Assembly: GCA_964534105.1 (NCBI GenBank)
Contig: CAZHOF010000001.1
Location: 13,126 to 48,243 of the forward strand
Direction: 5' to 3'
Origin: an uncultured Candidatus Saccharibacteria bacterium
GTDB taxonomy: Bacteria; Patescibacteriota; Minisyncoccia; UBA6257; GWB1-50-10
DNA: 35,118 bases
The translations under genes were made by a program, and so were the position numbers. This document shows positions 3,076-33,814 of this stretch, piece by piece. Every line of letters starts with the position of its first letter. The stretch's first letter is position 1. The notes under the pieces are model-generated. The model did no database searches. It was not told where the DNA came from and worked only from the letters and a program-made list of their open reading frames with translations.

Positions 3076-3569
3076 GGCACATTGTAAGCCGGATTCTGTG
3101 GTCCGATAAAAAATCGGACTAGCGACAATTTATCTGGGTCGTTGATTGCTCGCGGACTCAAGCGACTCACTCCGACACAAGGTCGGAGTACGGTCTTGCA
3201 CCCGACAAGGATTTAGCCGTTTCACCCCCGCTCTTGTTATCCCTATAAGCGGGGCTGGACCTTCTACGCTGGGATAGGGTCCCTCTGACACTTTCGTGCC
3301 AGAGCGTCTCTGTTCGCACCTCTCGCATTACTGCGGCGGGCTTTTCACCCGTGCCTTGATCCGACGATGAGGTCGGATCGGGAGTCCGGACTTTCCTCTG
3401 CCAAAATTGTTCGAGCGAAACGAGAATGCAATTTTGAGCGTCTCGCCACAGTTCCGACCTCGTCGGAACGACGGCGGGCCCGCCTTCGCATAAAGCTTTG
3501 GCGGGTTCTCAATTTTGTAATCACTCGCGATGCTCGCGAACGAAATTGGAAGCTGTCGCTTAATGTACC
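3076..3569 (-). ncRNA. rnpB: RNase P RNA, bacterial type A, unusually long (about 494 nt)
   Basis: The minus strand carries the conserved type A blocks: AGAGGAAAGTCCGGACTCC (CR-I/P4), GGGTGAAAAGCCCGCCGCAGTAATGCG, GCGAACAGAGA, GCTTGAGTCCGCGAGCAATC..CCAGATAAATTGTC and ACAGAATCCGGCTTAC (CR-V). The 5' GGTACATTAAGC can pair with the 3' GCTTACAATGTGCC (P1/P2). A promoter lies just upstream. Confidence 0.85.
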
Positions 3570-3575
3570 ATTTTA

Positions 3576-3604
3576 ATAATACGAGTATTTGTAAAAATGG
3601 TCAA
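3576..3604 (-). promoter_or_regulatory. Sigma70-like promoter for rnpB
   Basis: The minus strand reads TTGACC, a 17-nt spacer, then TATTAT. The putative start, about 7 nt downstream, coincides with GGTACATT. Confidence 0.5.
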
Positions 3605-3616
3605 ATATCGTATACT
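3589..3616 (+). promoter_or_regulatory. Possible promoter reading into the tRNA-like fragment / tRNA-Thr region
   Basis: TTGTAA, a 16-nt spacer, then TATACT. It ends about 13 nt before the tRNA-like 5' half. Confidence 0.3.
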
Positions 3617-3629
3617 AGAGCTTGACGAA

Positions 3630-3662
3630 TCCGCCTTAGCTCAGCTGGTAGATCCACCTGTG
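3630..3662 (+). pseudogene. Degenerate tRNA 5' half (tRNA-Ala-like), interrupted in the anticodon region
   Basis: TCCGCCT-TA-GCTC-AGCTGGTA-GA(T)C-CACC-TGTG has the layout of a tRNA 5' half. It resembles the 5' halves at 27127 and 27225. No matching T-arm or acceptor 3' strand follows directly. Confidence 0.45.
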
Positions 3663-3730
3663 TCCCAAATCGGGTTCCGGACGAAAAGTAGCGGGATTGT
3701 GTCCTTTTACCTCAAACTTTGTTTTCGGGA
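3663..3730 (+). mobile_element. 68-nt insertion-like or intron-like element with TCCC...GGGA termini
   Basis: Starts TCCCAAAT and ends TTTTCGGGA; the termini are complementary. It is followed by TGTGG-GCGGTGAC, which resembles the TCGGGA-CAA-TGTGG-AGGTCACC junction at 27428. Confidence 0.35.
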
Positions 3731-3752
3731 TGTGGGCGGTGACTTTCGCCAA

Positions 3753-3894
3753 GCCCCTCACCTTTTCTTAATTTTCCGGCTATAATTTATATTAATTGCC
3801 GATGTAGCTCAGTTGGTAGAGCAACGCTTTCGTAAAGCGTGGGTCGTCGGTTCGAATCCGACCATCGGCTCATGATCGAGAAAAGGTGAGGGGC
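3753..3894. repeat. 15-nt perfect inverted repeat bracketing tRNA-Thr
   Basis: GCCCCTCACCTTTTC (3753-3767) and GAAAAGGTGAGGGGC (3880-3894) are exact reverse complements. They lie 30 nt upstream and 9 nt downstream of the tRNA. Confidence 0.85.
3798..3870 (+). tRNA. tRNA-Thr(CGT)
   Basis: Full cloverleaf: GCCGATG-TA-GCTC-AGTTGGTA-GAGC-A-ACGCT-TTCGTAA-AGCGT-GGGTC-GTCGG-TTCGAAT-CCGAC-CATCGGC-T. CCA is not encoded. A TATAAT lies at 3781-3786. Confidence 0.95.
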
Positions 3895-4731: not shown

Positions 4732-5427
4732 ATGATCATATTCCAAAACGTTGCGAAGGTGTATAACCATAATTCCGTTGCGCTTGATAAAGTAAGTTTT
4801 AAAATTCAACCCGGAGAATTCGTTTCCATTGTAGGAAGATCAGGTGCGGGCAAGTCTACGGTAGTAAAACTATTAATTGGAGAAGACAAACCCACAAAGG
4901 GCCAGGTCTTTTTTGATTCTTACGAGATAGGCAAATTGAAACCGGCACAACTCCCTGAATTGCGTAGGAGAATCGGCGTTATCTTTCAGGACTTTCGCCT
5001 CTTATCCCGAAAGACGGCTTTTGAAAACGTGTCCTTCGCGCTTGAAGTTGCCGGAAGGCCACAAAGAGAGATTTCCGAATACGTCCCGCAGGTTCTTGAT
5101 ATGGTGGGAATTAAAGGAAAGGCGCATAACTTTCCCGCGGAATTATCCGGAGGAGAAAAGCAGAGGGTTGCAATAGCGCGAGCAATGATTCATCGCCCTG
5201 ACGTTATCATCGCCGACGAACCGACGGGGAATCTTGACCCCTTCAATACGTGGGAGGTAATCAAGTTATTGAGTAAGATTAATGAATTGGGAAGCACGGT
5301 GATTTTAGCAACGCATGATAAGGAAATCGTAAACGCCTTGGGGCAGAGGGTGATTACCATGGACAACGGACGCATCGTGCGCGATGAAGCAAATGGTCGT
5401 TTTCTCATTGATCAAAATATTTCATGA
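4732..5427 (+). CDS. ftsE: Cell division ATP-binding protein FtsE
   Basis: ABC ATPase with Walker A (GRSGAGKST), signature LSGGEKQR and Walker B (IIADEPT). Its end overlaps the ftsX start (ATGA). Confidence 0.9.
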   Translation: MIIFQNVAKVYNHNSVALDKVSFKIQPGEFVSIVGRSGAGKSTVVKLLIGEDKPTKGQVFFDSYEIGKLKPAQLPELRRRIGVIFQDFRLLSRKTAFENVSFALEVAGRPQREISEYVPQVLDMVGIKGKAHNFPAELSGGEKQRVAIARAMIHRPDVIIADEPTGNLDPFNTWEVIKLLSKINELGSTVILATHDKEIVNALGQRVITMDNGRIVRDEANGRFLIDQNIS

Positions 5428-6332
5428 TTGTTTCTTTTCTCCGCATTATTCGATACGGCATGCAGGGTTTTCTGCGAAATGGATGGCTCTCGTTCTCAAC
5501 GGTGAGTATTATGATTCTTGCGGCGTTGGTATTCGAAGGGTTAATCCTTTTTAACGTTGTCGGCAAAACGGCGATCGATTCCATTCAGGACAAAATAGAT
5601 ATTAGTGTTTATTTCAAATCCAGCGTCTCCGAGGATTCAATATTGAATATAAAAAAATCGCTGGAGGGATTAAGCGAAGTAAAGGCGGTGCAATATGTTT
5701 CACGCGATCAGGCATTGGAAGATTTTAAGGCGCGACACGCAGGTGAAAGCGTGGTTACCCAAACACTTGAAGAACTAGACGAAAACCCATTACTAGCATC
5801 GTTAAACGTGAAAGCGCAGGATCCTCGGGAGTACGAAACTATAGCGAAGCATCTCTCCAATCAAAATCTTCAGGAATTTATTGAAAAGATAACTTACGCC
5901 CAGAACCAAATTGTCATCAACCGTTTGGTGGCGCTTGTTGACGCGCTGCGCCAGGGGGGATTTTTACTAACGCTGTTCTTCGCTTTTCTTGCCGCAGTAG
6001 TCACGTTCAATACCATTCGTCTTGCTATTTTCTCAAACAGTGAACAGATCGGCATTATGCGTCTCGTAGGGGCATCAAACGGTTTTATCAGAGGTCCGTA
6101 TATCGTGGAGGGAGTTCTCTATGGAATTATTGCCGGCCTCGTCGGGTTTCTTGTCTTCATCCCGCTTATCGGAATCGGGAGTCCCTATGTGGTAAAACTT
6201 ATTCCCGAGATGAATCTCCAAAACTACTTCAATGACAGTATGTTTTCTTTCTTGTTTTATCAACTCTTGTTTGGGGTTGGCCTGGGAATCCTCTCAAGTA
6301 TATTTGCGGTAAGGCGATATCTGCGCGTATAG
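5424..6332 (+). CDS. ftsX: Cell division permease-like protein FtsX
   Basis: 302 aa with an N-terminal TM helix, a periplasmic alpha/beta domain (ISVYFK..ALEDFK) and three C-terminal TM helices. It is coupled to ftsE. Confidence 0.85.
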   Translation: MIVSFLRIIRYGMQGFLRNGWLSFSTVSIMILAALVFEGLILFNVVGKTAIDSIQDKIDISVYFKSSVSEDSILNIKKSLEGLSEVKAVQYVSRDQALEDFKARHAGESVVTQTLEELDENPLLASLNVKAQDPREYETIAKHLSNQNLQEFIEKITYAQNQIVINRLVALVDALRQGGFLLTLFFAFLAAVVTFNTIRLAIFSNSEQIGIMRLVGASNGFIRGPYIVEGVLYGIIAGLVGFLVFIPLIGIGSPYVVKLIPEMNLQNYFNDSMFSFLFYQLLFGVGLGILSSIFAVRRYLRV

Positions 6333-6369
6333 CGCAGAAACGCTCTCCTACCGATTAAACCAGAAATAT

Positions 6370-6398
6370 TTGACAAAGACGGGCTCTTTTCCTATCTT
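6370..6398 (+). promoter_or_regulatory. Promoter of the str operon
   Basis: TTGACA, a 17-nt spacer, then TATCTT, about 35 nt upstream of rpsL. Confidence 0.5.
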
Positions 6399-6433
6399 TA
6401 CAAGGACGCTTGAAAAAAGCGGGATAACTTTTT

Positions 6434-6844
6434 ATGCCAACAGTTAGACAGCTGATTAAAAAAGGAAGGAAACGCACCGAAGAAAAGGATAAAACTCCGG
6501 CTCTCAGCCGTTATTTCAATTATCTCCGAAACAGGCCGGTTAACTCTCCGTCACCTTTTAAGCGCGGGGTGTGTCTTAAGGTTTTCACCACCACGCCGAA
6601 GAAACCGAACTCCGCCCTTCGGAAAGTGGCTCGCGTACGTCTTACGAACGGCATGGAAGTTACGGCATACATTCCGGGAGAGGGACACAATCTACAGGAG
6701 CATTCCGTGGTGATGATTCGGGGAGGCCGCGTAAAAGATCTCCCGGGAGTTCGCTATCATGTTGTGCGAGGGGTATTAGACACGGGAGGAGTGGAAAATA
6801 GGAAGCAGCAGAGATCGAAGTACGGATCAAAACGAGCGAAGTAG
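6434..6844 (+). CDS. rpsL: 30S ribosomal protein S12
   Basis: [49 protein letters not shown]. Confidence 0.97.
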
Positions 6845-7329: not shown

Positions 7330-9474
7330 ATGCCCAGAATTTACCCCATTGATCGCGTGAGGGATATAGGTATTATCGCCCACATTGATGCCGGAAAGAC
7401 GACAGTGTCTGAGCGTGTTTTATTTTATACCGGCATTTCACATCGCATCGGAGAGGTGCATGAAGGGCAAGCGATTATGGATTGGATGGAGCAGGAGCGC
7501 GAACGTGGTATTACCATCACCTCTGCTGCAACAACCTGTTTCTGGATTCCTTCTTATGAAAGAGTCAAGGCGGGCGACGATCAGGAAAAGCTTGCAGAGA
7601 TAAAAAAAGAAGTTGAACATCGCATCAACATCATCGACACGCCGGGACACATTGACTTCACTGTCGAGGTAAAGCGCTCATTGCGCGTTTTGGATGGTGC
7701 GGTCGTGGTGTTTGACGGGGTCTCCGGGGTTGAGCCGCAGTCCGAAACAAACTGGAGGTATGCCGACGAATTCAAAGTTCCGCGCATCTGCTTCATTAAT
7801 AAATTAGACAGAACGGGAGCAAGCTTCGATGGCAGTTTGAAATCGATTCATGACCGGTTGACGCCAAACGCCGTCGCGCTCCAAATACCCATTGGTCTCG
7901 AGAGCGACTTCTCCGGTGTCGTCGATCTTTTGGAAGAGAAAGCCCTCTTCTTCGAAGGGGAGAAGGGAGAAAAAATCGTCACGAAAGAAATCCCTGAAGC
8001 GTTACAGGAAGAAGTAAAAAAGCGTCGGAGCGAATTAGTGGAAAAGATAGCCGAGACCGACGATAAACTCATCGCCGATTTCCTTGAAGGGAAAGAAATT
8101 CCGGTTGATCTGCTGAAAAAAGCGCTCCGCAAAGCAACTCTTGAGGTAAAGCTCATCCCGGTGTTATGTGGTTCCGCCTTGAAAAACAAGGGTGTGCAGC
8201 TGCTTCTTGATGCTGTCGTGGATTATCTTCCTTCCCCGGCCGATCTGCCTCCTGTTAAGGGAATAAATCCTAAGAAACACGAAGAAGAAGAACGAAGCTC
8301 GAAAGATGACGCCCCGCTTTCTGCGTTGGCGTTCAAGATCGCTTCGGACCCGTTTGTGGGAACATTAACGTACATCCGTATCTACTCCGGGACGCTCAAA
8401 CGAAGTAGTTATATATTGAATACCACAAAGAACGAGCAGGAACGCATCGGGAGGATTCTTCGCATGCATGCAAACCATCGCGAAGAAGTCGAAGAAATGT
8501 ACGCCGGAGACCTTGGTGCCCTTGTGGGTATGAAAAATACGACAACGGGAGACACACTAACTGTTCCGGAGCAGCCGATTATCCTTGAGAAAATTACTTT
8601 CCCTGAACCAGTCATCGACATTCGTATCGAACCGAGAACAAAAGCCGATCAGGAGAAAATGGGCGTTGCACTTCACAAGCTTGCTGATGAAGATCCGACA
8701 TTTCGGGTGAGCGGCGATCCCGACTCGGGAGAAACACTCATTGCCGGCATGGGAGAGCTGCACCTGGAAATCATCGTTGAGCGTATGAAGCGCGAGTTCG
8801 GCGTAGAGGCGGACGTGGGACGCCCACAGGTCGCGTATAAGGAAACGATAAAAGGAGAAGCGGAAGCAGAAGGAAAATATATCAGGCAATCCGGTGGGAG
8901 AGGTCAGTACGGTCACGTAAAACTCCGCGTTGAGCCGCTTGAACGCGGCAAGGGATTTGAATTTGTTAATGAGATTAGGGGAGGAGTCATTCCGCAAGAG
9001 TTCATTCCGGCTGTTGAAAAAGGTGTCCGTGAAGCGATGGAGAAGGGCGTCCTTGCAGGATATCCGCTCGTGGATACCCAGGCCGCGCTGTTTGACGGTT
9101 CGTTCCACGAAGTAGATTCCTCGGAGATCGCCTTTAAGATCGCTGCAGGCATGGCGTTTCAGGAAGCAATTCGCAGGGCAAAACCCGTGCTCCTTGAGCC
9201 GATCATGAAGGTGCAGGTCATTATACCCTCGGAATTTCTTGGAGATGTTACCGGCGATTTAAGCTCTCGCAGAGCGAAAATTAACGCAATGGACGAGCGT
9301 AGTAATGTGCGTGTCGTTGATGCGGAAGTTCCTCTTGCGAGCATGTTCGGATACGTTACCAACCTTCGTTCAATGACCCAGGGAAGAGGAAGCTTCTCTA
9401 TGGAATTTTTCGCTTACGAGGAGGTTCCTGTAAATGTTACGCAAACCATTGTCGAGGGTCGGAAAAAGGAGTAA
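7330..9474 (+). CDS. fusA: Elongation factor G
   Basis: [22 protein letters not shown] and full EF-G domains II-V. 714 aa. Confidence 0.97.
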
Positions 9475-18141: not shown

Positions 18142-18702
18142 ATGAGCAAAATTGGAAAAAAACCGATAACTATTCCCGAAAACGTTTCCGTAACAATGGG
18201 TGATGACGGAATACTCGTAAAAGGAGAGAAGGGACAGCTTCTTGTCCCGGGTCTCCGTGATATTACGGTAGACATAAAAGACGGGGAAATTACTTTCTCG
18301 CCGAAGCGTAATACAAAGCAGGCGCGCAGTAATTGGGGGACAATGCGAGCACTTGTCCAAAACGCGATACAAGGAATCACGGAGGGATTTTCGAAAACGT
18401 TGCTTTTGGAAGGTGTCGGGTATCGTATAACGAAAGAGGGAGAAGATTTAAACATGAATCTTGGTTTTTCTCATTCTGTTCGATACAACACGCCGAAAGG
18501 TATAACATTCGAAGTCGAAAAGAACACAACGCTGATCATCAGGGGAATCGATAAAACGCTTGTTGGTCAGGTTGCCGCGAAAATTCGCGCGTTTCGAAAA
18601 CCCGAACCTTATAAAGGAACGGGCTTCCGGTATGCCGATGAGATAGTGCGGAGAAAAGCCGGAAAGAAAGCAGCGACAGCCGGAGAAGCTGGAGCAAAAT
18701 AA
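18142..18702 (+). CDS. rplF: 50S ribosomal protein L6
   Basis: [35 protein letters not shown]. Confidence 0.96.
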
Positions 18703-18710
18703 AAACCTTT

Positions 18711-19064
18711 ATGAAAGTGATAACAAGACAGAACCAAATACGGGAACGAAGAAAAAGGAGAGTTCGCAACCGTGTTCACGGGACAAAAGATCGTCCGCGT
18801 CTTTGCGTGTTTCGAAGTTTGCACGCAACCTCGGTCCAGATAATTGATGACATAAAAGGAAAAACGTTGGTTTCGGCGTCATCTCGGGAAGTAAAACAAA
18901 AAGGGACAAAAACCGAGCTGGCAAAAGCAACGGGAAAACTACTGGCCGAGCGTGCGGAAAAAGCAGGAGTGCATGCAGTAGTGGTTGATCGCGGATCTTA
19001 TCGATATCACGGGAGGGTAAAAGCCCTAGTCGACGCAACACGCGAGTCCGGTTTATCGCTATAA
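18711..19064 (+). CDS. rplR: 50S ribosomal protein L18
   Basis: R.RR..R.R..G...RPRL.VFRS..H...[26 protein letters not shown]. Confidence 0.95.
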
Positions 19065-22033: not shown

Positions 22034-22795
22034 ATGATACGTCTAAAGACGAAGGATGATATAGAGCGGTTACGGAAATCGGGAGCCCTGCTTGCGGGCG
22101 TTCTTGAGGAAATAAAACAAAACGCCCTTCCCGGAGTTTCTCTTGCTGATCTGGACCGCATTGCGGAGGAGTATATCAAAAAGGCGGGGGCGAAACCCGC
22201 TTTTCTCGGGTATGTTCCGGAAGGAGCCCAGGAACCGTATCCGGCCTCGTTATGCGCCTCATTGAACGATGTGGTAGTTCACGGTATCCCTTCGGCATAT
22301 ACGCTTCGTGAAGGCGATGTGTTATCCATTGATCTGGGAGTTGATCTTGAAGGGTTTATTACGGATGCTGCAATAACAATAGGCGTTGGAAAGATAGCAA
22401 GGGAACATCAGGAGTTGATAACGACAGCAGAGCGTGCTCTTGAAGCAGCAATTACTGTATGTGTGCCGGGAAATCATCTCGGAGATATCGGTTTTGCAAT
22501 CGAAAATAAAGTAAGGACAGCGGGATTTTCCGTTGTGCGAGGTCTTACGGGTCATGGAGTCGGCTTTAATCTCCATGAGGACCCGGTGGTGTATAACTAC
22601 GGAACGCAGAAAACCGGATTGGAGTTACGGCCCGGACTCGTTTTAGCACTTGAGCCGATGATTAGTACGGGGTCAGGATCAGTCGAGGAGATGAAGGATG
22701 GAAGCTTCAAAACAAAAGACGGGAGTATAACCGCTCATGTTGAACACACGGTTGCGGTTACAAATGAAGGTCCGGTTGTGTTAACGAAGAACTAG
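22034..22795 (+). CDS. map: Methionine aminopeptidase, type I
   Basis: KT..DIE.LR.SG, VVHGIP, D.G.......D.A.T..VG, GHG.G...HE.P, EPM....G, HVEHTV.VT. Confidence 0.95.
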   Translation: MIRLKTKDDIERLRKSGALLAGVLEEIKQNALPGVSLADLDRIAEEYIKKAGAKPAFLGYVPEGAQEPYPASLCASLNDVVVHGIPSAYTLREGDVLSIDLGVDLEGFITDAAITIGVGKIAREHQELITTAERALEAAITVCVPGNHLGDIGFAIENKVRTAGFSVVRGLTGHGVGFNLHEDPVVYNYGTQKTGLELRPGLVLALEPMISTGSGSVEEMKDGSFKTKDGSITAHVEHTVAVTNEGPVVLTKN

Positions 22796-24798
22796 TCCTC
22801 TTGATCCTGAGAAGCTGCTTCTTCGCCAATTTCTTTGGGCTTGCTCCAAGACGCATAGTCGCAATCAGGGTATCTGTTGCAACCATAAAACATGCGGCGC
22901 TTTTTCGTTCTCTTTTTTACAACCTCTCCCTTCTTGCACTTTGGACAGGGACCAAGAGGTTCCTGGGGATTTCCAAGTGATTTCGTACTTTTACATTCAG
23001 GAAAACCGGTACAGGCAAGAAATCTGCCGAAGCGCCCGGTTTTTACAACCATCGGCTTTCCGCATTTCTCGCATACCTCATCGGTTTTCTCTTCCGGAGG
23101 AAGAATGTCATCCTTTGAAACCTCTTCGTATTTCTTTTCCAGATGCTTTGCGAAAGGTTCGTAAAACTTGCGGATTGCCTTGCGCCATTCCAAATTCCCT
23201 TCGGCAATCGCATCCAACTCTTCTTCAAGCCGGGCGGTAAATCCAACATCAACGATTTCAGGAAAGTGTTCTTTGAGAAGGCGATTTACAAGCGTGCCGA
23301 TTTCAGTCGGTTCAAAGCGCCGAGATTCGTTTTTCTGAACATAATTGCGAAGTTGGATAACTGAAATGATTGGGGCATATGTGGAAGGACGCCCGATACC
23401 GAAGGTCTCGAGAGCTTTAATAATACTCGCTTCGTTGTAGCGGGGAGGAGGTTCCGTAAAATGCTGCTCCGGATTTACCGCAATGACCGAAAGGACATCT
23501 CTGCGAGTTATGTTTGGAAGAGTACGCTCCTCGAATTTTTGAGGCCAAACTTTGAGAAAGCCGTCAAACACAAGAGTTGTTCCGTTAGCCCTTAAAAGAT
23601 ATTCGTTTTTCTTGTGTTCCACGGAAACAGAAATGGTGGTTGCACTGAACTGGGCCTGCGGGAGCTGCGAGGCAATAAATCGGCGCCAAATAAGTTCATA
23701 CACCTTGCGTTCGGCGGCTTGGGAAAATTCCTTTCCGAGCGATTCCGGCGTACGCGCAGGATCCGTAGGACGTATGGCCTCATGGGCTTCTTGTGCGAGG
23801 CGGGATTTTACTTTGAAAACCCTCGGTTTTTCGATAAGGTAATCCTTGCCCCATTCGTGTTGAATAAAGCGACGCGCAGCGCTTAAAGATTCCTGCGAAA
23901 GATTGAAGGAATCGGTACGCATATAGGTGATATGACCGTTTTCATACAAGCTTTGGGCCGCGCGCATGGTTTGACGTGCACTCAGGCGAAGCTTTCGGTT
24001 CGCCTCCTGTTGCAGGGTGCTGGTGATAAATGGAGGGAGTGGATTCCGTTTCACTGTTTTTTGCGTTATATCATTTATGGAAACAGAACCGTTCTGGATG
24101 TCGTCAGCGATAATGTTTACCTCTTTTTCGGTCGCAATACCGGGCTTCGGGAGCGATTCCTTATTTATGCTGTGAAGTGCTGCGGTAAAGGATTCCTGCC
24201 CCCCTTCTTTCTGAAAATCGGCGGTAAGCGTCCAATATTCTTCGGGCTTGAAACGTTGTATCTCTTCCTCGCGATCGGCAATAAGGCGGAGCGCAACAGA
24301 TTGTACGCGTCCTGCCGAAAGTCCGCGTACAACTTTTTTCCAAAGGAATGGAGAAAGAAGATAGCCTACCAAACGGTCGAGAATACGGCGGGCTTGTTGG
24401 GCATTTACAAGGCTTATGTTCAGCTGTCGGGGGTGTTCCAAGGCGCTCTGAAGAGCATCCTTCGTAATCTCATGAAAGACGATGCGTTCTGTCTTGTCGG
24501 TTGCAAGATCAAGCGCCTGGGTAAGGTGCCAGGCAATAGCTTCCCCTTCGCGATCTTCGTCAGTAGCGAGGACAACCTCGTCCGCAGAAGCCGCCTTTTT
24601 CTTTAAGGCGGTGACCGTTTTCCGAACTTTTGTGGGAATAACGTATTGGGGAGAAAAATCTTCGTCTACGTCAATGCCGAGCTTGCTCTTTGGAAGGTCG
24701 CGAATATGGCCGTAGGAAGAAGTTACCTCGTAATCACTGCCAAGGAACTTACTGATGGTCTTTGCTTTAGTAGGTGATTCTACAATGACTAGTTTCAT
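22792..24798 (-). CDS. topA: DNA topoisomerase I
   Basis: MKLVIVESPTKAKTISKFLG (TOPRIM), ATDEDREGEAIAWH, HITYMRTDS (active-site Tyr region), and two C-terminal zinc ribbons (CEKCGKPM..C, CPKCKKG..C). Its stop overlaps the map stop by 4 nt (convergent). Confidence 0.97.
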   Translation of the reverse strand: MKLVIVESPTKAKTISKFLGSDYEVTSSYGHIRDLPKSKLGIDVDEDFSPQYVIPTKVRKTVTALKKKAASADEVVLATDEDREGEAIAWHLTQALDLATDKTERIVFHEITKDALQSALEHPRQLNISLVNAQQARRILDRLVGYLLSPFLWKKVVRGLSAGRVQSVALRLIADREEEIQRFKPEEYWTLTADFQKEGGQESFTAALHSINKESLPKPGIATEKEVNIIADDIQNGSVSINDITQKTVKRNPLPPFITSTLQQEANRKLRLSARQTMRAAQSLYENGHITYMRTDSFNLSQESLSAARRFIQHEWGKDYLIEKPRVFKVKSRLAQEAHEAIRPTDPARTPESLGKEFSQAAERKVYELIWRRFIASQLPQAQFSATTISVSVEHKKNEYLLRANGTTLVFDGFLKVWPQKFEERTLPNITRRDVLSVIAVNPEQHFTEPPPRYNEASIIKALETFGIGRPSTYAPIISVIQLRNYVQKNESRRFEPTEIGTLVNRLLKEHFPEIVDVGFTARLEEELDAIAEGNLEWRKAIRKFYEPFAKHLEKKYEEVSKDDILPPEEKTDEVCEKCGKPMVVKTGRFGRFLACTGFPECKSTKSLGNPQEPLGPCPKCKKGEVVKKRTKKRRMFYGCNRYPDCDYASWSKPKEIGEEAASQDQED

Positions 24799-24998
24799 GA
24801 TGATGGCGATGGTTTTTGTCCCGCCACTTTACGAGCGGAGCGAGTATAAAGTGGGCGAGGATCCCGCTTATATCCCGATGCAAATCTTGCAATAGTGTCT
24901 TGACAGAAAGTGGCGGGATCACGTCCATTAACCTCCCGCATGGCGGATTGGGATATGGGCGGGACTTTAGTAGGTGATTCTACAATGACTAGTTTCAT
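24765..24998 (-). repeat. 34-nt perfect direct repeat of the topA start (period exactly 200 nt)
   Basis: 24765-24798 and 24965-24998 are identical (CTTTAGTAGGTGATTCTACAATGACTAGTTTCAT). On the minus strand this is ATG plus the first 11 codons of topA. Confidence 0.95.
24819..24964 (-). mobile_element. 146-nt insertion-like or intron-like element interrupting an upstream duplicate of the topA 5' end
   Basis: In topA sense it starts TCCCGCC and ends GGCGGGA (7-bp complementary termini). The flanks are ..ACTAAAG^ and ^CAAAAACCATC. The native gene reads ..ACTAAAG-CAAAGACCATC. Confidence 0.45.
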
Positions 24999-25019
24999 AT
25001 CAAGTGGATATAACGAAGA

Positions 25020-25922
25020 TTATAATTGACTTTGGATAGAGAAAACACCCCCCGGCTTTTCCTCGACGACTCCCTTCATAATCAATGGGGTGAGTTTTTG
25101 ATTTATAATCCATGGTTCCTTTCCCGTCAATGCGACGAGCTGATCAAGGGTATGTCCGGAACCCGATTCTTGAAGAAGAGAACACAACTCACGCTCTTCC
25201 TGGGAAAGAGACGGAAGGGGAACACGGGAAGGAGATTGGGCATCCGCCATAAAAGAAAACTCTCCCTGCAAATCCTCCATGATATCAGCAAGTGAAGAAA
25301 CAAGACGCGCTCCGGTTCTGATGAGATGGTGTGAGCCGGTGTAATGAGCATGCCCGGCGGGACCCGGAAAAACGAAAACATCACGGCCGTGCTCTGCGGC
25401 AAGACGCGCGGTTACAAGAGCCCCGGAGTGAACAGGAGCTTCAATAACAATGGTAGCGAGAGCGAGTCCGGCAACAATCCGGTTCCGTTCAAGGAAATGA
25501 TGGGGAAGCGCGGGAGTGCTCACGGGATATTCCGAGAGAAGCCCGCCGTTTCGCTCCAGGATCTTTAAAGCAAGACGTTCGTGATAAACCGGATAGATGC
25601 TATCAAGACCGTTTGCAAGCACGGCAAAGGTTGTGCCGCCGCCCTCAAGCGTTCCTTCATGTGCTGCGGCGTCAATACCGAAGGCGAGCCCGCTTACGGA
25701 GCCGAATCCGCGTTCTGCGAGTTCTCGGGCAATGCGCCGTGCGAGTGAAATTCCATCCCGGGTCGCTTTACGCGTGCCGACGATTGCAAAAAGAGCAGGC
25801 GTCGGATCAGGAAGAGATCCTCGATAATAAAGAATCTGCGGGGGAGCTGCAATTTCCTGGAGTGGCGGCGGATAACCGGGAGAATTGATGTGGATTTCGT
25901 TGATAGTCGGCTGAAAATCCAT
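25020..25922 (-). CDS. dprA: DNA processing/protecting protein DprA (Smf)
   Basis: ILYYRGSLP, AIVGTRKAT..G...A, SGLA.GIDAAAHEG.L, T.AVLA.GLD.IYP. Common dprA-topA synteny. Confidence 0.92.
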   Translation of the reverse strand: MDFQPTINEIHINSPGYPPPLQEIAAPPQILYYRGSLPDPTPALFAIVGTRKATRDGISLARRIARELAERGFGSVSGLAFGIDAAAHEGTLEGGGTTFAVLANGLDSIYPVYHERLALKILERNGGLLSEYPVSTPALPHHFLERNRIVAGLALATIVIEAPVHSGALVTARLAAEHGRDVFVFPGPAGHAHYTGSHHLIRTGARLVSSLADIMEDLQGEFSFMADAQSPSRVPLPSLSQEERELCSLLQESGSGHTLDQLVALTGKEPWIINQKLTPLIMKGVVEEKPGGVFSIQSQL

Positions 25923-25953
25923 ATGGTACTATACTATTAGTATATACTAAGGA

Positions 25954-26475
25954 ATGCATTATACACTCACGCGCTTTCAAAAAAAACTCATACTTCATCT
26001 CTCGATAACACTGGGAATTATCGGGGTATTGATGTGGGTTATTATCGCTTCCGGATCGAGTATCGGTAAGGCGAGTACTTCAATAAGAACGTTACAGGGA
26101 GAATTTTCCCGCCGACTCGGCGTTATCCGGGCGCTTGCAGATGCGCGGGCGGGGCATCGAAAGGCGGAACCGGCCCAAAAAACGCTCCAAAATATTATTC
26201 CCCAGAAAGAAAAATTAATCGATCTTTCCCAAAATTTCCGCCGAGTTGCACAAAGGGTTGGACTCGGTTATACCTATTCTTTTATCGAAGAGGTAGCAAC
26301 GGCCCCCGCGGCCCCGGGATTTATCCGGTTTCGCCTTTCTCTCACCGAAGGCGAATTTGAGAAATTTTCCACTTTTTTGAAGGAATTGAAAAATTTTCAA
26401 TACGTAACACGCATCGAGGAAGTTTTGGTAAATTACGATAAGATGGAAGTCGTAGGATCGGTATTTTTCCGATAA
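25954..26475 (+). CDS. Hypothetical membrane-anchored protein (PilO-like architecture; weak call)
   Basis: 173 aa with an N-terminal TM helix (ITLGIIGVLMWVIIA), a helical segment and a C-terminal alpha/beta region. No motif I can name. Confidence 0.5.
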   Translation: MHYTLTRFQKKLILHLSITLGIIGVLMWVIIASGSSIGKASTSIRTLQGEFSRRLGVIRALADARAGHRKAEPAQKTLQNIIPQKEKLIDLSQNFRRVAQRVGLGYTYSFIEEVATAPAAPGFIRFRLSLTEGEFEKFSTFLKELKNFQYVTRIEEVLVNYDKMEVVGSVFFR

Positions 26476-26787: not shown

Positions 26788-26850
26788 CACGAATTTTCTC
26801 CGAGCGGAGCGAGGCAAGGAAATTCAGTGCCCGCCTGAGGCGGGCAACAT

Positions 26851-27093
26851 ATGCACTTTGTTTATGTGTTGAAAAGTACACGGGATGGCCATCGCTATGT
26901 TGGAAGCGCGAATGACGTGGAACGCCGTTTTCGAGAACACCAGCGCGGCAAAGTAAGCTCGACAGAACAGCGGCGACCCCTTATGCTTCTATACAGCGAG
27001 TGCTATACCACTCAAAAAGAAGCACTACAGCGGGAACAGTTTCTGAAGTCCGGAAAGGGGAGACAGTGGCTTGATGCAAGAGGGATACGGTAG
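26851..27093 (+). CDS. Small GIY-YIG nuclease family protein (YhbQ/UPF0213-like)
   Basis: 80 aa: FVYVLKS..DGHRYVGSANDVERRFREHQRGK...T...RP..LLYSE.Y....EAL.RE..LKS. Confidence 0.8.
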   Translation: MHFVYVLKSTRDGHRYVGSANDVERRFREHQRGKVSSTEQRRPLMLLYSECYTTQKEALQREQFLKSGKGRQWLDARGIR

Positions 27094-27126: not shown

Positions 27127-27161
27127 GGCCCCGTAGCTCAGTTGGTAGAGCACTACATTTG
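27127..27161 (+). pseudogene. tRNA-Ala-like 5' half, ending inside the anticodon
   Basis: GGCCCCG-TA-GCTC-AGTTGGTA-GAGC-A-CTACA-TTTG, then non-tRNA sequence TCCCGAT. Confidence 0.7.
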
Positions 27162-27211
27162 TCCCGATATTGTTCAAATTTTTCAAATTTGATTACAATA
27201 TCGAGGATCCT

Positions 27212-27320
27212 CGATAACTTTGGTGGGCCCGTAGCTTAGTTGGTAGAGCGCCACATTTGCAATGTGGAGGTCACCGGTTCGAATCCGGTCGGGTCCACCA
27301 TGGGCCCACCAAAGTTATCG
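27212..27320. repeat. 19-nt perfect inverted repeat bracketing tRNA-Ala
   Basis: CGATAACTTTGGTGGGCCC (27212-27230, including the first 6 nt of the tRNA) and GGGCCCACCAAAGTTATCG (27302-27320). Confidence 0.9.
27225..27300 (+). tRNA. tRNA-Ala(TGC), CCA encoded
   Basis: GGGCCCG-TA-GCTT-AGTTGGTA-GAGC-G-CCACA-TTTGCAA-TGTGG-AGGTC-ACCGG-TTCGAAT-CCGGT-CGGGTCC-A-CCA. G3:U70 is present. Confidence 0.95.
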
Positions 27321-27323
27321 GGA

Positions 27324-27361
27324 CAATGTAGGGGTCGCGGGTTCGAATCCCGCTCGGTCCA
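27324..27361 (+). pseudogene. tRNA-Ala-like 3' half (partner of 27127-27161)
   Basis: CAA-TGTAG-GGGTC-GCGGG-TTCGAAT-CCCGC-TCGGTCC-A. TGTAG complements CTACA of the 5' half. The acceptor complementarity is degraded. Confidence 0.7.
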
Positions 27362-27427
27362 CAAACGAGGATACTGCGTTCATTATCTCGGGATCGCGGA
27401 TAACATAATCGCATTACTCCTTGTTCT

Positions 27428-27472
27428 TCGGGACAATGTGGAGGTCACCGGTTCGAATCCGGTCGGGTCCAC
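27428..27472 (+). pseudogene. Orphan tRNA-Ala 3' half preceded by a TCGGGA junction
   Basis: 27434-27472 is identical to 27260-27298 of the intact gene (39 nt). It is preceded by TCGGGA, as at 27318. Confidence 0.8.
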
Positions 27473-32597: not shown

Positions 32598-33521
32598 ATG
32601 ATTGTGCCTAAAAGGATAACCAAAAGGAAAATTACTATACCTATATCTAGTACCAATGGAGGAAATAGCGTTGCTCGGACAGACATTCAGTTTGGAAGTA
32701 AGAGTATTACTTTATTAATAGGGCTGGATTTACTGATTAGGATTCAGTACAAAGAACAACGCGAGAAAAAAGTTCTTAAAACACTTAAAGGTAAAATTCT
32801 TAGAGACAGAAGACTCTTCACGGCAAAAAACCGAAAGTCTACCCAAAAGTTTTTAGTTGCTGACCGAGAAATAAGAGAGTTGTTAAATAAGGACAAAAAG
32901 GAGTTAAATAAAAGAAATAAGTCAGAGTTCGAAGACTTTTCTAGTAATCTTAAGCGAAGACAGGATTTACTATTAAAAATAGCGAAGGATTTAAACTTCG
33001 ATGTTGTCCGATCGCATAAGGAATACATTTGTAAAAATTGCAACGGGTTTCGAGCAGGGCCTAGTCTTGCAGCAACAAGCAAACCAACATGCGCATTATG
33101 TAAAAACCTACTCAAAGGATTTAATATTCAGCAAATAGATACAGATGTGGCGGCTTATTTAACTGGTTATTGGTTAGAAGATTATGTTGCTAATATTCTA
33201 AGTAAAAATAATTGGGAAGCATGGTCATCTCCCACTCTATTGGTCTATGGTGTATCCGGAGCTTCTCATCAAGTTGATGTGCTAGCAATCAAAGACGGGC
33301 GAATTCTTATTATTGAGTGTAAAACAGGAGAATTCGCGCCAACTCAAGTTATGAATTTTTTAGGAAAGTACCATGATATCCGTTGCCATCAAGCGCTAGC
33401 TGTTTCAATTGGAAAGATTCACCCGGATGCCAGAAAAATAATAGAAAAGAATGTGGCGATAGATTATTATGATAATATAAATGACTATAAAAAATTAATT
33501 GAGAAAATTAAAAAATTATGA
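32598..33521 (+). CDS. Zn-ribbon plus PD-(D/E)xK (NERD/restriction-endonuclease-like) nuclease
   Basis: 307 aa with a K/R-rich N-terminus and CKNCNG...CALCKN. The core HQVDVLAIKDGRILIIECKTGE shows a D...ExK pattern. Confidence 0.65.
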   Translation: MIVPKRITKRKITIPISSTNGGNSVARTDIQFGSKSITLLIGLDLLIRIQYKEQREKKVLKTLKGKILRDRRLFTAKNRKSTQKFLVADREIRELLNKDKKELNKRNKSEFEDFSSNLKRRQDLLLKIAKDLNFDVVRSHKEYICKNCNGFRAGPSLAATSKPTCALCKNLLKGFNIQQIDTDVAAYLTGYWLEDYVANILSKNNWEAWSSPTLLVYGVSGASHQVDVLAIKDGRILIIECKTGEFAPTQVMNFLGKYHDIRCHQALAVSIGKIHPDARKIIEKNVAIDYYDNINDYKKLIEKIKKL

Positions 33522-33814
33522 CAAGAGTAACTAAGCAATCCGGCGTCTTGCCGTGGCAAGCAACAAATATTTCTACTGCACCATCTAAACCTGGAGTTTA
33601 TGCACTAAGGACTTCGACCGAAATAAGCAGTGTTGTTTACATAGGAAGTTCTGACAACATTGAAAGAAGGCTGAATGAGCATTTTTTGTTAGGCGATATT
33701 CCTGGGATTTCGTTCTTTGACTGGTATGAGGCCGACTCTATGGAAGCCGCACGAGAGCTTGAAAAAGAGTGGATAGTTAAACATTCTCCAAAATACAATA
33801 CTCGGGTTGGGTAA
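33518..33814 (+). CDS. GIY-YIG domain nuclease
   Basis: 98 aa: PGVYALR...VVYIGSSDNIERRLNEH, ..ARELEKEWI. Start overlaps the upstream stop (ATGA). Confidence 0.75.
   Translation: MTRVTKQSGVLPWQATNISTAPSKPGVYALRTSTEISSVVYIGSSDNIERRLNEHFLLGDIPGISFFDWYEADSMEAARELEKEWIVKHSPKYNTRVG

Follow-up and report, generated by a model that had tools for sequence, protein, structure and literature searches.

The stretch of DNA analyzed here (the window; 35,118 nt of contig CAZHOF010000001.1 from an uncultured Candidatus Saccharibacteria bacterium) carries a topA gene whose start is present twice, the upstream copy being interrupted by a structured block of 146 nt that we refer to as E. The locus is read in gene sense, which is the minus strand for every feature of the topA locus, and coordinates are those of the window. 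The intact topA gene (22792..24798) codes for a type IA DNA topoisomerase I of 668 amino acids with the Pfam domains Toprim, Topoisom_bac, and Zn_ribbon_Top1, and its conserved upstream neighbor is dprA (25020..25922; PF02481), which marks the ancestral topA start. Beginning 21 nt after the dprA stop codon (25022-25020) is the upstream copy of the topA start (A_up, 24965..24998), which spans the ATG and the next 10 codons and ends with the first base of codon 12. The same 34-mer, ATGAAACTAGTCATTGTAGAATCACCTACTAAAG, is found at both 24798-24765 and 24998-24965, with 34/34 identity and a 200-nt spacing, and the downstream copy (A_down, 24765..24798) heads the functional gene and continues as CAAAGACCATCAGT into full-length TopA. 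E (24819..24964, TCCCGCC...GGCGGGA) is inserted between the first and second bases of codon 12, and it is followed by the rest of the interrupted copy (B', CAAAAACCATC, 24808..24818), which matches the native CAAAGACCATC at 24754-24764 in 10 of 11 positions, and then by 9 nt of filler (GCCATCATC, 24799..24807) that leads to the real ATG. The duplicated segment of topA is in fact 45 nt, 34 nt of which precede the insertion point and 11 nt of which follow.

The ancestral ATG opens an upstream open reading frame (uORF) of 67 codons (24795..24998), which runs through A_up, E, B', and the filler, and whose TGA overlaps the ATG of the functional gene (ATGA); it is annotated as a gene in public assemblies. 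An earlier sequence-only reading of this DNA had described the twofold topA start, the 146-nt block within its upstream copy, the return to topA codons after the block, and the 67-codon frame closing on the real ATG, and all four descriptions hold. To these we add the 45-nt extent of the duplication, the conservation of the ATGA overlap, a family of E-like elements across Patescibacteria, and an old arrangement common to distant lineages. Read without E, the upstream copy is MKLVIVESPTKAKTIAII-MKLVIVESPTKAKTISK, in which B' supplies topA codons 12 to 15 (AKTI). The E-less junction is TCACCTACTAAAG|CAAAAACCATCGCC, represented by the 30-mer TCACCTACTAAAGCAAAAACCATCGCCATC, which can be told from the native junction by an A in place of G and by the filler; the 30-mer for the E-bearing junction is CCTACTAAAGTCCCGCCCATATCC, and the peptides MKLVIVESPTKAK and TIAIIMK are named for proteomic tracing. 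The sole −10-like sequence close to either start is a TATAAT hexamer (25019..25024) that overlaps the dprA stop codon, 20 nt 5' of the upstream ATG. A consensus scan revealed no full promoter on either strand of 24600-25200 and no terminator-like site at the locus, and neither start is preceded by an obvious GGAGG or visible Shine-Dalgarno sequence. Nor does the scan show any promoter-like site inside E, where the sequence-only reading had proposed looking for a promoter driving the downstream copy.

The exact 200-nt period and the perfect identity of the two copies in the window strain had raised the concern of an assembly artifact, which we now consider virtually out of the question. The region is identical base for base in six further assemblies from six different ENA or JGI samples (401 nt in L001-L004, and 291 nt in L031 and L033). 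The source samples include ENA ERZ27248939, ERZ27248897, and ERZ27248920 and JGI 3300028168 and 3300028169. In a seventh assembly, L032, whose sequence resisted alignment, the 67-codon ORF is likewise called. The layout recurs in a variant strain, L005, in which the two copies are only 29/34 identical and E differs at three positions, and k-mer collapse cannot explain the five mismatches between its copies. It is thus fixed in all nine independent assemblies of the species, including the window, which derive from two assembly pipelines, and four other lineages share the architecture with 6 to 10 differences between copies in the 27-nt part coding for LVIVESPTK. Strain single-nucleotide polymorphisms (SNPs) are patchily distributed, reflecting a recombining population within which the arrangement is fixed. 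SNP clusters at 24923-25269 and 22791-22843 could have suggested a selective sweep or a mobile cassette around topA, but similar patches occur elsewhere (secY, 25952-26029) and point to ordinary mosaic recombination. We note that at the converging ends of topA and map (22791-22843), the window strain lacks 12 nt (ATAAGCCCTGAT) present in all other strains, with three SNPs nearby.

The closest TopA proteins, among thousands of homologues, are those of other Patescibacteria (Jorgensenbacteria, Wolfebacteria, and Brennerbacteria), the best being 73% identical. In the two closest relatives whose sequence was fetched, E is absent and dprA directly precedes topA: in L006 (TopA 73% identical) the dprA stop codon overlaps the topA ATG (ATGA), and in L007 (67% identical) the gap is 17 nt. 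A_up therefore corresponds to the ancestral start, and E together with the second start is derived, in agreement with the earlier proposal of an element inserted into a gene that was saved by a 5' duplication. In a set of 124 related TopA proteins, none has a tandem N-terminal duplication in the absence of E. Duplication and element thus occur together, and an order of events in which duplication came first and insertion later can be set aside.

E contains three hairpins. H1 (24922..24961) has a CGCCC/GGACG stem, conserved loops ATATCCCRA and GAGGTTAA, and an inner hairpin CCGC-CAT-GCGG; H2 (24860..24920) has the stem GATCCCGCC/AAGCGGGAT and a loop of ∼45 nt that is unrelated between lineages, similarity there being at the level of shuffled sequence; and H3 (24820..24859) has the form CCTCGCCCACTTT...AAAGTGGCGGG with the conserved loop motif CTCGCTYCGCTCG. 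Across an alignment of 11 members the three stems share CCCGCC/GGCGGG, and the free central loop lies between two arms of ∼50 nt that form an imperfect inverted repeat, both based on TCCCGCC...GATCCCGCC. Standard pairs occupy 96.6% of cells in this alignment, compared with 91% in shuffles and ∼40% when the structure is slid, and covariation is above that of 500/500 shuffles. Six pairs show compensatory changes (20 cells, compared with 6.8 expected), including H1 pair 8/73 (CG in seven sequences, AU in three) and pairs 156/176, 160/174, and 164/170 of H3 (helices 3 and 4). In the H1 inner hairpin, CCGC/GCGG becomes CTGC/GCAG in L014 and L015. The unpaired motifs ATCCC(-A) and GAGGTT in H1 and CTC.CTTCG.TCG in H3 are invariant. 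Overall, E is 74 to 84% identical between lineages whose TopA proteins are 52 to 62% identical.

Neither strand is singled out by the wobble counts. The predicted folding energy is −50.3 kcal/mol (z −2.6) for the topA-sense strand and −60.7 kcal/mol (z −4.2) for the plus strand, and the wobble pairs of the 11 sequences comprise 15 sense-strand G-U cells, 11 of them from one invariant U-G pair, versus nine A-C cells. Because E is a large imperfect palindrome, the covariance model described below also scores its opposite strand, at 25 to 40 bits. Searches with cmscan found no Rfam family for E at either the gathering threshold or E values up to 10, and a likeness of H1 to 5S rRNA (the CCGAAC...GAAGUUAAG region) was discarded when the Rfam 5S model failed to match any copy tested at E values up to 10.

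E belongs to a family of ∼140- to 180-nt, three-hairpin, GC-rich elements in Patescibacteria. The covariance model R1, built here from alignment A7 with 11 aligned members from eight or more genomes, recovers these members at 97 to 165 bits (146 bits for the window copy) and is usable for a structured element family that is absent from Rfam; our literature search returned no description of the family or of the topA arrangement. Members were found by two routes. The 67-residue uORF product was used as a query against 1.8 billion representative proteins, followed by a profile search, which identified homologous uORFs in two other lineages (P0128 in L008, and P0130 in L009-L011). A pattern derived from the invariant 3' hairpin, CTCGCCCACTT N15-25 AAGTGGCGGGA, was run on species genomes and metagenomes and gave further copies, although only five real matches were found in 185,579 species genomes, three of them E-bearing topA genes, with one exact-pattern match per genome. 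E lies at the same topA nucleotide in L008, in L010 (with L012 in the same lineage), in L013 (Paceibacterota), and in L014 (Liptonbacteria). Elsewhere it is found between two genes (L015, L023, and L029), between tRNA genes close to RNase P RNA (L016), upstream of a gene for an actin-like ATPase (L020 and L021), between convergent genes (L028), and near a tRNA (L030).

Several apparent matches were rejected. Those in L017, L018, and L022 are chance occurrences inside coding sequence, as are TTGTCCCG at 18242 and CGGGACAA at 18779 of the window, which fall within ribosomal protein genes, and none of 20 viral contig loci from a 16-mer scan fits the covariance model. An earlier pattern, GTRGCGGGATNNNGTCCWTTWACC, matches the window and L001-L004 but nothing in the genome and metagenome contig collections, which lack this species. 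The uORF search also brought up a protein of 886 residues (P0129) with seven repeats weakly like the E-encoded part of the uORF (E 6e-6; DPxxxRSGTIALFASGMG...DPNxxPLHV), a resemblance probably due to chance or low complexity. The window contains a second, degenerate family member (3608..3741, minus strand; nhmmer E 0.003; covariance model 22.8 bits, local E 8e-7), in which H1 and the 5' side of H2 are recognizable and H3 is truncated, 57 nt upstream of tRNA-Thr. Its loop holds tRNA-like D-arm sequence, and the 770-nt noncoding stretch 5' of tRNA-Thr (in the 3400-3797 region) also has a weaker E fragment at 3458-3550. Likewise, L014 has a degenerate extra copy at 7405-7597, as detected by R1. 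The L028 and L030 copies are 83% identical to each other, and we note that at these two loci (L028, 2894-3010; L030, reverse strand, 339-450) the right flanks are identical over the 110 nt compared and the left flanks differ; the common flank matches nothing in Rfam and lacks a long ORF.

Comparison of the five lineages with the topA arrangement (the window, L014, L008, L010, and L013) shows which of its properties are conserved. E measures 146 nt in the window and L014, 149 nt in L008 and L013, and 152 nt in L010, and thus its length is 2 mod 3 in all five, even though separate one-base indels distinguish the copies. A_up is 34 nt in the window, L014, and L008, 37 nt in L010, and 49 nt in L013, and B' plus filler is 20 nt in the window, L014, and L010, 14 nt in L008, and 22 nt in L013; the filler itself is 3 to 11 nt of sequence unrelated between lineages. 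The uORF frame is free of stops through E in 5/5 lineages and is the sole such frame of the six, even across the randomized loop, giving uORFs of 66 to 76 codons. Its stop overlaps the topA ATG in four of the five and lies 10 nt beyond the ATG in L013. The sequence-only reading had stated that precise removal of the block restores the topA frame, and this is the case for four of the five lineages, the window included, where A_up plus remnant is 54, 54, 48, and 57 nt (0 mod 3), but L013 is out of frame. The sister-genome comparison that it called for yields both an E-less ancestral layout in L006 and L007 and the same layout in four other lineages, with L013 departing in frame.

The age and spread of the arrangement can be read in two ways. 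TopA identity among E-bearing lineages is 52 to 62% (74% for L012 and L013), while the closer relatives of the window at 73% and 67% lack E, a distribution that would result either from one very old insertion with many losses or from a few site-specific gains. Losses would be easy, since the two copies could recombine and thereby remove the arrangement without a trace. The ten copies of the 27-nt coding segment have reached saturation in their distances (∼6 to 7 of 10 possible), which therefore carry no signal as to whether A_down traveled with E or which of the two histories applies.

The pattern of substitution differs sharply between E and the coding sequence before it. Variable sites in E are spread over the uORF codon positions as 7/6/4, which indicates that E is constrained as nucleic acid rather than as protein; the E-encoded peptide is not conserved, and the conserved property is the openness of the frame rather than a product. 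In contrast, A_up encodes M-x-LVIVESPTK in all five lineages, and the 27 nt for LVIVESPTK have ten variable sites distributed 1/0/9 over codon positions (nine third positions and one synonymous first position), all of them synonymous; K11E in strain L005 is the sole exception. Upstream and downstream LVIVESPTK segments differ at 10, 7, 6, and 8 of 27 positions in L008, L010, L013, and L014, respectively, again synonymously save for one V/I. B' is CAAAAACYATY, or CCAAAACCATC in L013, and in the E-less frame reads AKTI in 5/5 lineages with changes at third positions only. The sister lineages L012 and L013, which both have E, differ at seven A_up sites, all of which belong to the synonymous set of the five-lineage comparison, and their E loops and fillers are unrelated. 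As the free loop is no more alike between copies than shuffled sequence, these copies have been apart for long enough to randomize unconstrained positions. Either A_up would be under purifying selection for its amino acids or the insertions would all be recent and independent, and the latter fits poorly with the saturated loops.

The explanation that we favor, at about an even chance of being correct, is that E is a nonautonomous, hairpin-rich insertion resembling MITEs (miniature inverted-repeat transposable elements) or repetitive extragenic palindromic (REP) sequences, and that topA is expressed from the second start through translational coupling to the uORF. Transcription and translation would begin at the ancestral site just behind dprA, and ribosomes would translate 11 TopA codons, E, and the remnant, thereby melting the three hairpins, keeping the transcript covered, and avoiding an untranslated structured leader. 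They would then terminate at the TGA lying over the topA ATG (or just past it in L013) and reinitiate there, and coupling of this kind could supply ribosomes to a start codon lacking a visible Shine-Dalgarno sequence. The gene survives because its first 45 nt are present again 3 to 11 nt further on, heading a complete copy; that duplication may have arisen when a lethal insertion was repaired by means of an intact copy, or the mobile unit may have brought its own replacement start. A coupling model predicts conservation of the length class, the open frame, and the stop position, as observed here, and an uninterrupted uORF leading to a stop at the start codon is the configuration expected of termination-reinitiation, although coupling itself is a prediction. 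The conserved length class and open frame also indicate that ribosomes read through E rather than that E is removed, and the lack of a promoter-like site inside E lends further support.

Nonetheless, several observations weigh against this explanation. Coupling does not require that A_up keep the first 11 residues of TopA, and the synonymous-only change at its ten variable sites is notable given that neutral sites are saturated across lineages. The confinement of B' changes to third positions of the E-less frame is likewise unaccounted for, as is the retention of A_up plus remnant in frame with topA in 4/5 lineages, which coupling alone does not need. The MITE label is also weak: the five topA copies show no target-site duplication, the 35-kb window yielded no transposase with matching ends, and most genomes show only one or two E copies. 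Finally, the shared insertion point, orientation, and 11-nt remnant at such low TopA identity could denote an ancient event with many losses or site-specific spread.

The exon-like evolution of A_up and B', together with the frame kept in 4/5 lineages, keeps alive the idea that E is removed. E would then be an intervening element lost by RNA splicing of an unknown type, by ribosome skipping, or by precise DNA excision in some cells, and A_up would truly encode the N terminus of a form of TopA; we regard this as unlikely. The synonymous-only variation of A_up beside an evenly varying E, the invariant AKTI, the 0 mod 3 lengths, and the L012/L013 comparison all fit, and pairing of the 7-bp E ends would bring the flanking lysine codons together (AAR G^CA AAA). 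However, the spliced element offered by the sequence-only reading does not stand as stated: E matches no group I, group II, or ribozyme family, its junctions have neither the U and terminal G of group I introns, the GUGYG...AY ends of group II introns, nor a bulge-helix-bulge, the L013 frame is broken once E is removed, and the conserved length class and open frame would be irrelevant. Moreover, the product would have its first beta strand twice, which would be redundant, a collection of ∼15 billion proteins contains none of the exact E-less fusion proteins from three lineages, and E is present in all nine assemblies of the species. Ribosomal bypass faces the added difficulties that the 146-nt gap is ∼3 times that of T4 gene 60 and that no stop codon follows the take-off codon. 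In a bolder form, to which we give a rather low probability, E would represent a new kind of removable sequence of ∼150 nt with three hairpins and no known ribozyme core, which is spliced, stepped over, or excised often enough to keep 15 split codons under full purifying selection, with the second start as a fail-safe and a split tRNA-Ala gene elsewhere in the window (see below) as a second substrate of the same machinery.

Two further explanations assign E a function of its own. It may have been domesticated as a cis-regulator of topA, either as an RNA switch of the attenuator type that the ribosome on the uORF would read or as a DNA cruciform that would sense negative supercoiling and tune expression of the enzyme relieving it, and we view this as possible though improbable; it is compatible with the coupling that we favor. 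The high identity of E between lineages whose TopA proteins have diverged and whose neutral sites are randomized is in keeping with such a role, as are the invariant unpaired motifs, the fixation of the arrangement within the species, and the capacity of GGCGGG(A) to pair with three alternative partners, with T>C/A>G changes in all three together. The want of a clear strand bias in G-U versus A-C cells, save for the one invariant U-G pair, suits a DNA-level or two-stranded structure. Set against this, the E family also occurs in unrelated intergenic places, such that its conservation need not serve topA, the scan shows no terminator-like site, and the supercoiling version is purely conjectural. 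It is very unlikely that E is instead a gene for a small RNA antisense to topA that happens to lie in a duplicated start. The plus strand does fold better, several of the mismatched stem positions in the window copy read C-A in topA sense and G-U on the opposite strand, and some copies have −10-like hexamers 5 to 8 nt before the plus-strand start of E; but wobble counts over the 11 sequences are mixed, no promoter emerges from the scan, the imperfect palindrome allows both strands to score with the model, and so sporadic a distribution among species genomes is unlike that of a housekeeping RNA.

The arrangement is real, conserved, and newly described, and its parts are of known kinds apart from one unexplained signal. 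Group I introns can be dismissed in that there is no match to the P3-P9 catalytic core as modeled in Rfam Intron_gpI (cmscan, E values up to 10), E is 146 to 152 nt rather than the usual >200 nt, and in 5/5 lineages the exon ends in G (AAAG/AAGG) rather than U and E ends in A (GGCGGGA) rather than G. Group II introns are similarly excluded, as E begins UC(A)CCGCC and ends GGGA rather than having 5' GUGYG and 3' AY ends, again with no match to the Rfam models, domain V included. The E ends do form a 7-bp helix, but by inspection the flanks ACUAAAG and CAAAAAC are unpairable and there are no 3-nt staggered bulges as in a bulge-helix-bulge intron, and no covariance model for self-cleaving ribozymes (hammerhead, twister, pistol, hatchet, or HDV-like) matches. 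E does resemble homing introns and inteins in its position at the most conserved stretch of topA (ESPTK|AKTI), its patchy occurrence among relatives, and its exon-like flanks, although unlike them it has no ribozyme core or endonuclease ORF, is accompanied by a complete second start, and in L013 does not leave a restored frame. T4 gene 60 bypass involves matched take-off and landing codons, a stop after the take-off codon, and a gap of ∼50 nt. The lysine codons on either side of E could play the parts of take-off and landing codons, but the next codon is GUC, the frame is open for 55 codons, and the gap of 146 to 152 nt is, to our knowledge, ∼3 times longer than any known bypass, arguing against a process of this type.

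Mobile elements are among the closest known parallels. Bacterial MITEs and other small nonautonomous repeats, including Correia/NEMIS, RUP, BOX, and ERIC, have been reviewed (PMC2229807, PMC3184786, PMC10969869). E is like MITEs in its ∼100- to 200-nt size class, terminal inverted repeats (a perfect 7-nt TCCCGCC/GGCGGGA plus the imperfect ∼50-nt arms), strong hairpins, and lack of coding capacity, and the MITE traits of lying between genes and sometimes inside them, being cotranscribable, and being able to alter neighbor expression apply to the E family as well. It apparently departs from them in its inconsistent target-site duplication and in its low copy number, with one or two per genome where MITEs have tens (two family members in the window and two in L014). 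It further differs in that very distant lineages keep the same copy at a single nucleotide of an essential gene, its sequence being strongly constrained. Flank repeats of 7 to 10 nt are present at two copies (TTTGCATTTT on both sides in L020; TGCGAATG on both sides with a 2-nt offset in L015), and no target-site duplication is seen in L016, L028, or L030. There is no transposase among the window ORFs, and we know of no parent insertion sequence for E. REP and BIME elements are high-copy palindromes of 20 to 40 nt with a GTAG/CGTC tag and an associated RAYT transposase, whereas E is 146 nt and composite with no such tag at its ends. The IS200/IS605-derived PATE elements leave no target duplication, have subterminal hairpins, insert 3' of a fixed tetra- or pentanucleotide, and depend on a Y1 transposase. 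The topA copies of E have no duplication and hairpins near both ends, and plus-strand left flanks of family copies are TTTG, CACG, AACG, and AATG, with only G^...^C in common.

Rickettsia palindromic elements (RPE) in protein-coding genes have also been mentioned (PMC1779305, PMC10969869). The likeness to E is that of a palindromic selfish element of ∼100 to 150 nt that a reduced genome tolerates within an essential or conserved ORF and that host ribosomes translate. RPE lying inside protein-coding genes were reportedly described by Ogata et al. in 2000. In contrast to RPE, whose lengths are multiples of 3 and which keep the host frame and are retained in its protein, E breaks the ORF with its 2 mod 3 length and is apparently tolerated by way of a duplicated start and restarted translation. 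The overlap of the uORF stop with the topA ATG recalls stop-start coupling in operons (ATGA/TGATG), as seen for the dprA stop over the topA ATG in L006, but here the upstream cistron is no gene but a topA relic fused to E, seemingly kept for its openness and end position. Integrative elements that supply a replacement gene end (a tRNA 3' end or gene 5' end duplicated at attL/attR, and CIME-type remnants) are similar in that the insert lies between direct repeats of the gene end and the gene remains intact, and the window has a split tRNA-Ala with an intact tRNA-Ala in its insert; they are dissimilar in that the topA insert is only 166 to 175 nt and att recombination does not explain the 11-nt remnant. 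Integration at an att site can be rejected, the longest run shared by the L008 copies being ATGAA (5 nt), which is no crossover core, and no integrase being present among the 20 window ORFs.

If the coupling interpretation is correct, the locus represents a minimal genome that tolerates a selfish or structural element in an indispensable gene by means of a duplicated start, with the old start serving as a leader ORF that hands on ribosomes, and would be a natural case of rescue by translational coupling maintained over very long evolutionary distances. It raises the question of whether a nonribozyme element is removed from bacterial mRNA or, if not, why a copy of the 11-residue TopA N terminus is kept.

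The split tRNA-Ala(TGC) gene, the second copy in the window, occupies 27127-27472, and its anticodon loop (TTTG^CAA) is interrupted by a 162-nt insert (27162-27323) with the ends TCCCGAT...ATCGGGA. The insert contains an intact tRNA-Ala (27225-27300), ARAGORN recognizes a tRNA-Ala when 27127-27161 is joined to 27324-27363, and an exact copy of the 3' half of the intact tRNA-Ala lies at 27434-27472, directly after ...TTCGGGA. As at topA, an essential gene has been interrupted and an intact copy lies beside it. Two small free-standing GIY-YIG nuclease ORFs, of 80 and 98 residues, are located at 26851-27093 and 33518-33814, the former between tRNA-Ile and the split tRNA-Ala and just downstream of a 13-nt exact match to E (CGAGCGGAGCGAG, 26801-26813). 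Among the relatives, L008 has a 39-nt hairpin, TCCCGATTTT...AAAATCGGGA (∼1993-2031), 12 nt before the upstream topA ATG, with ends as in the tRNA-Ala insert of the window, and in L014 a ∼100-nt inverted repeat, CCCGTTAGAAGC...GCTTCTAACGGG (reverse strand, ∼2260-2375), touches the upstream topA ATG. In L016, the RNase P RNA match (5305-5975) spans 671 nt for a 367-position model and thus probably includes insertions, and minus-strand tRNA-like sequences at 6330-6720 appear to hold TCCCGAT-type inserts after the anticodon stem.

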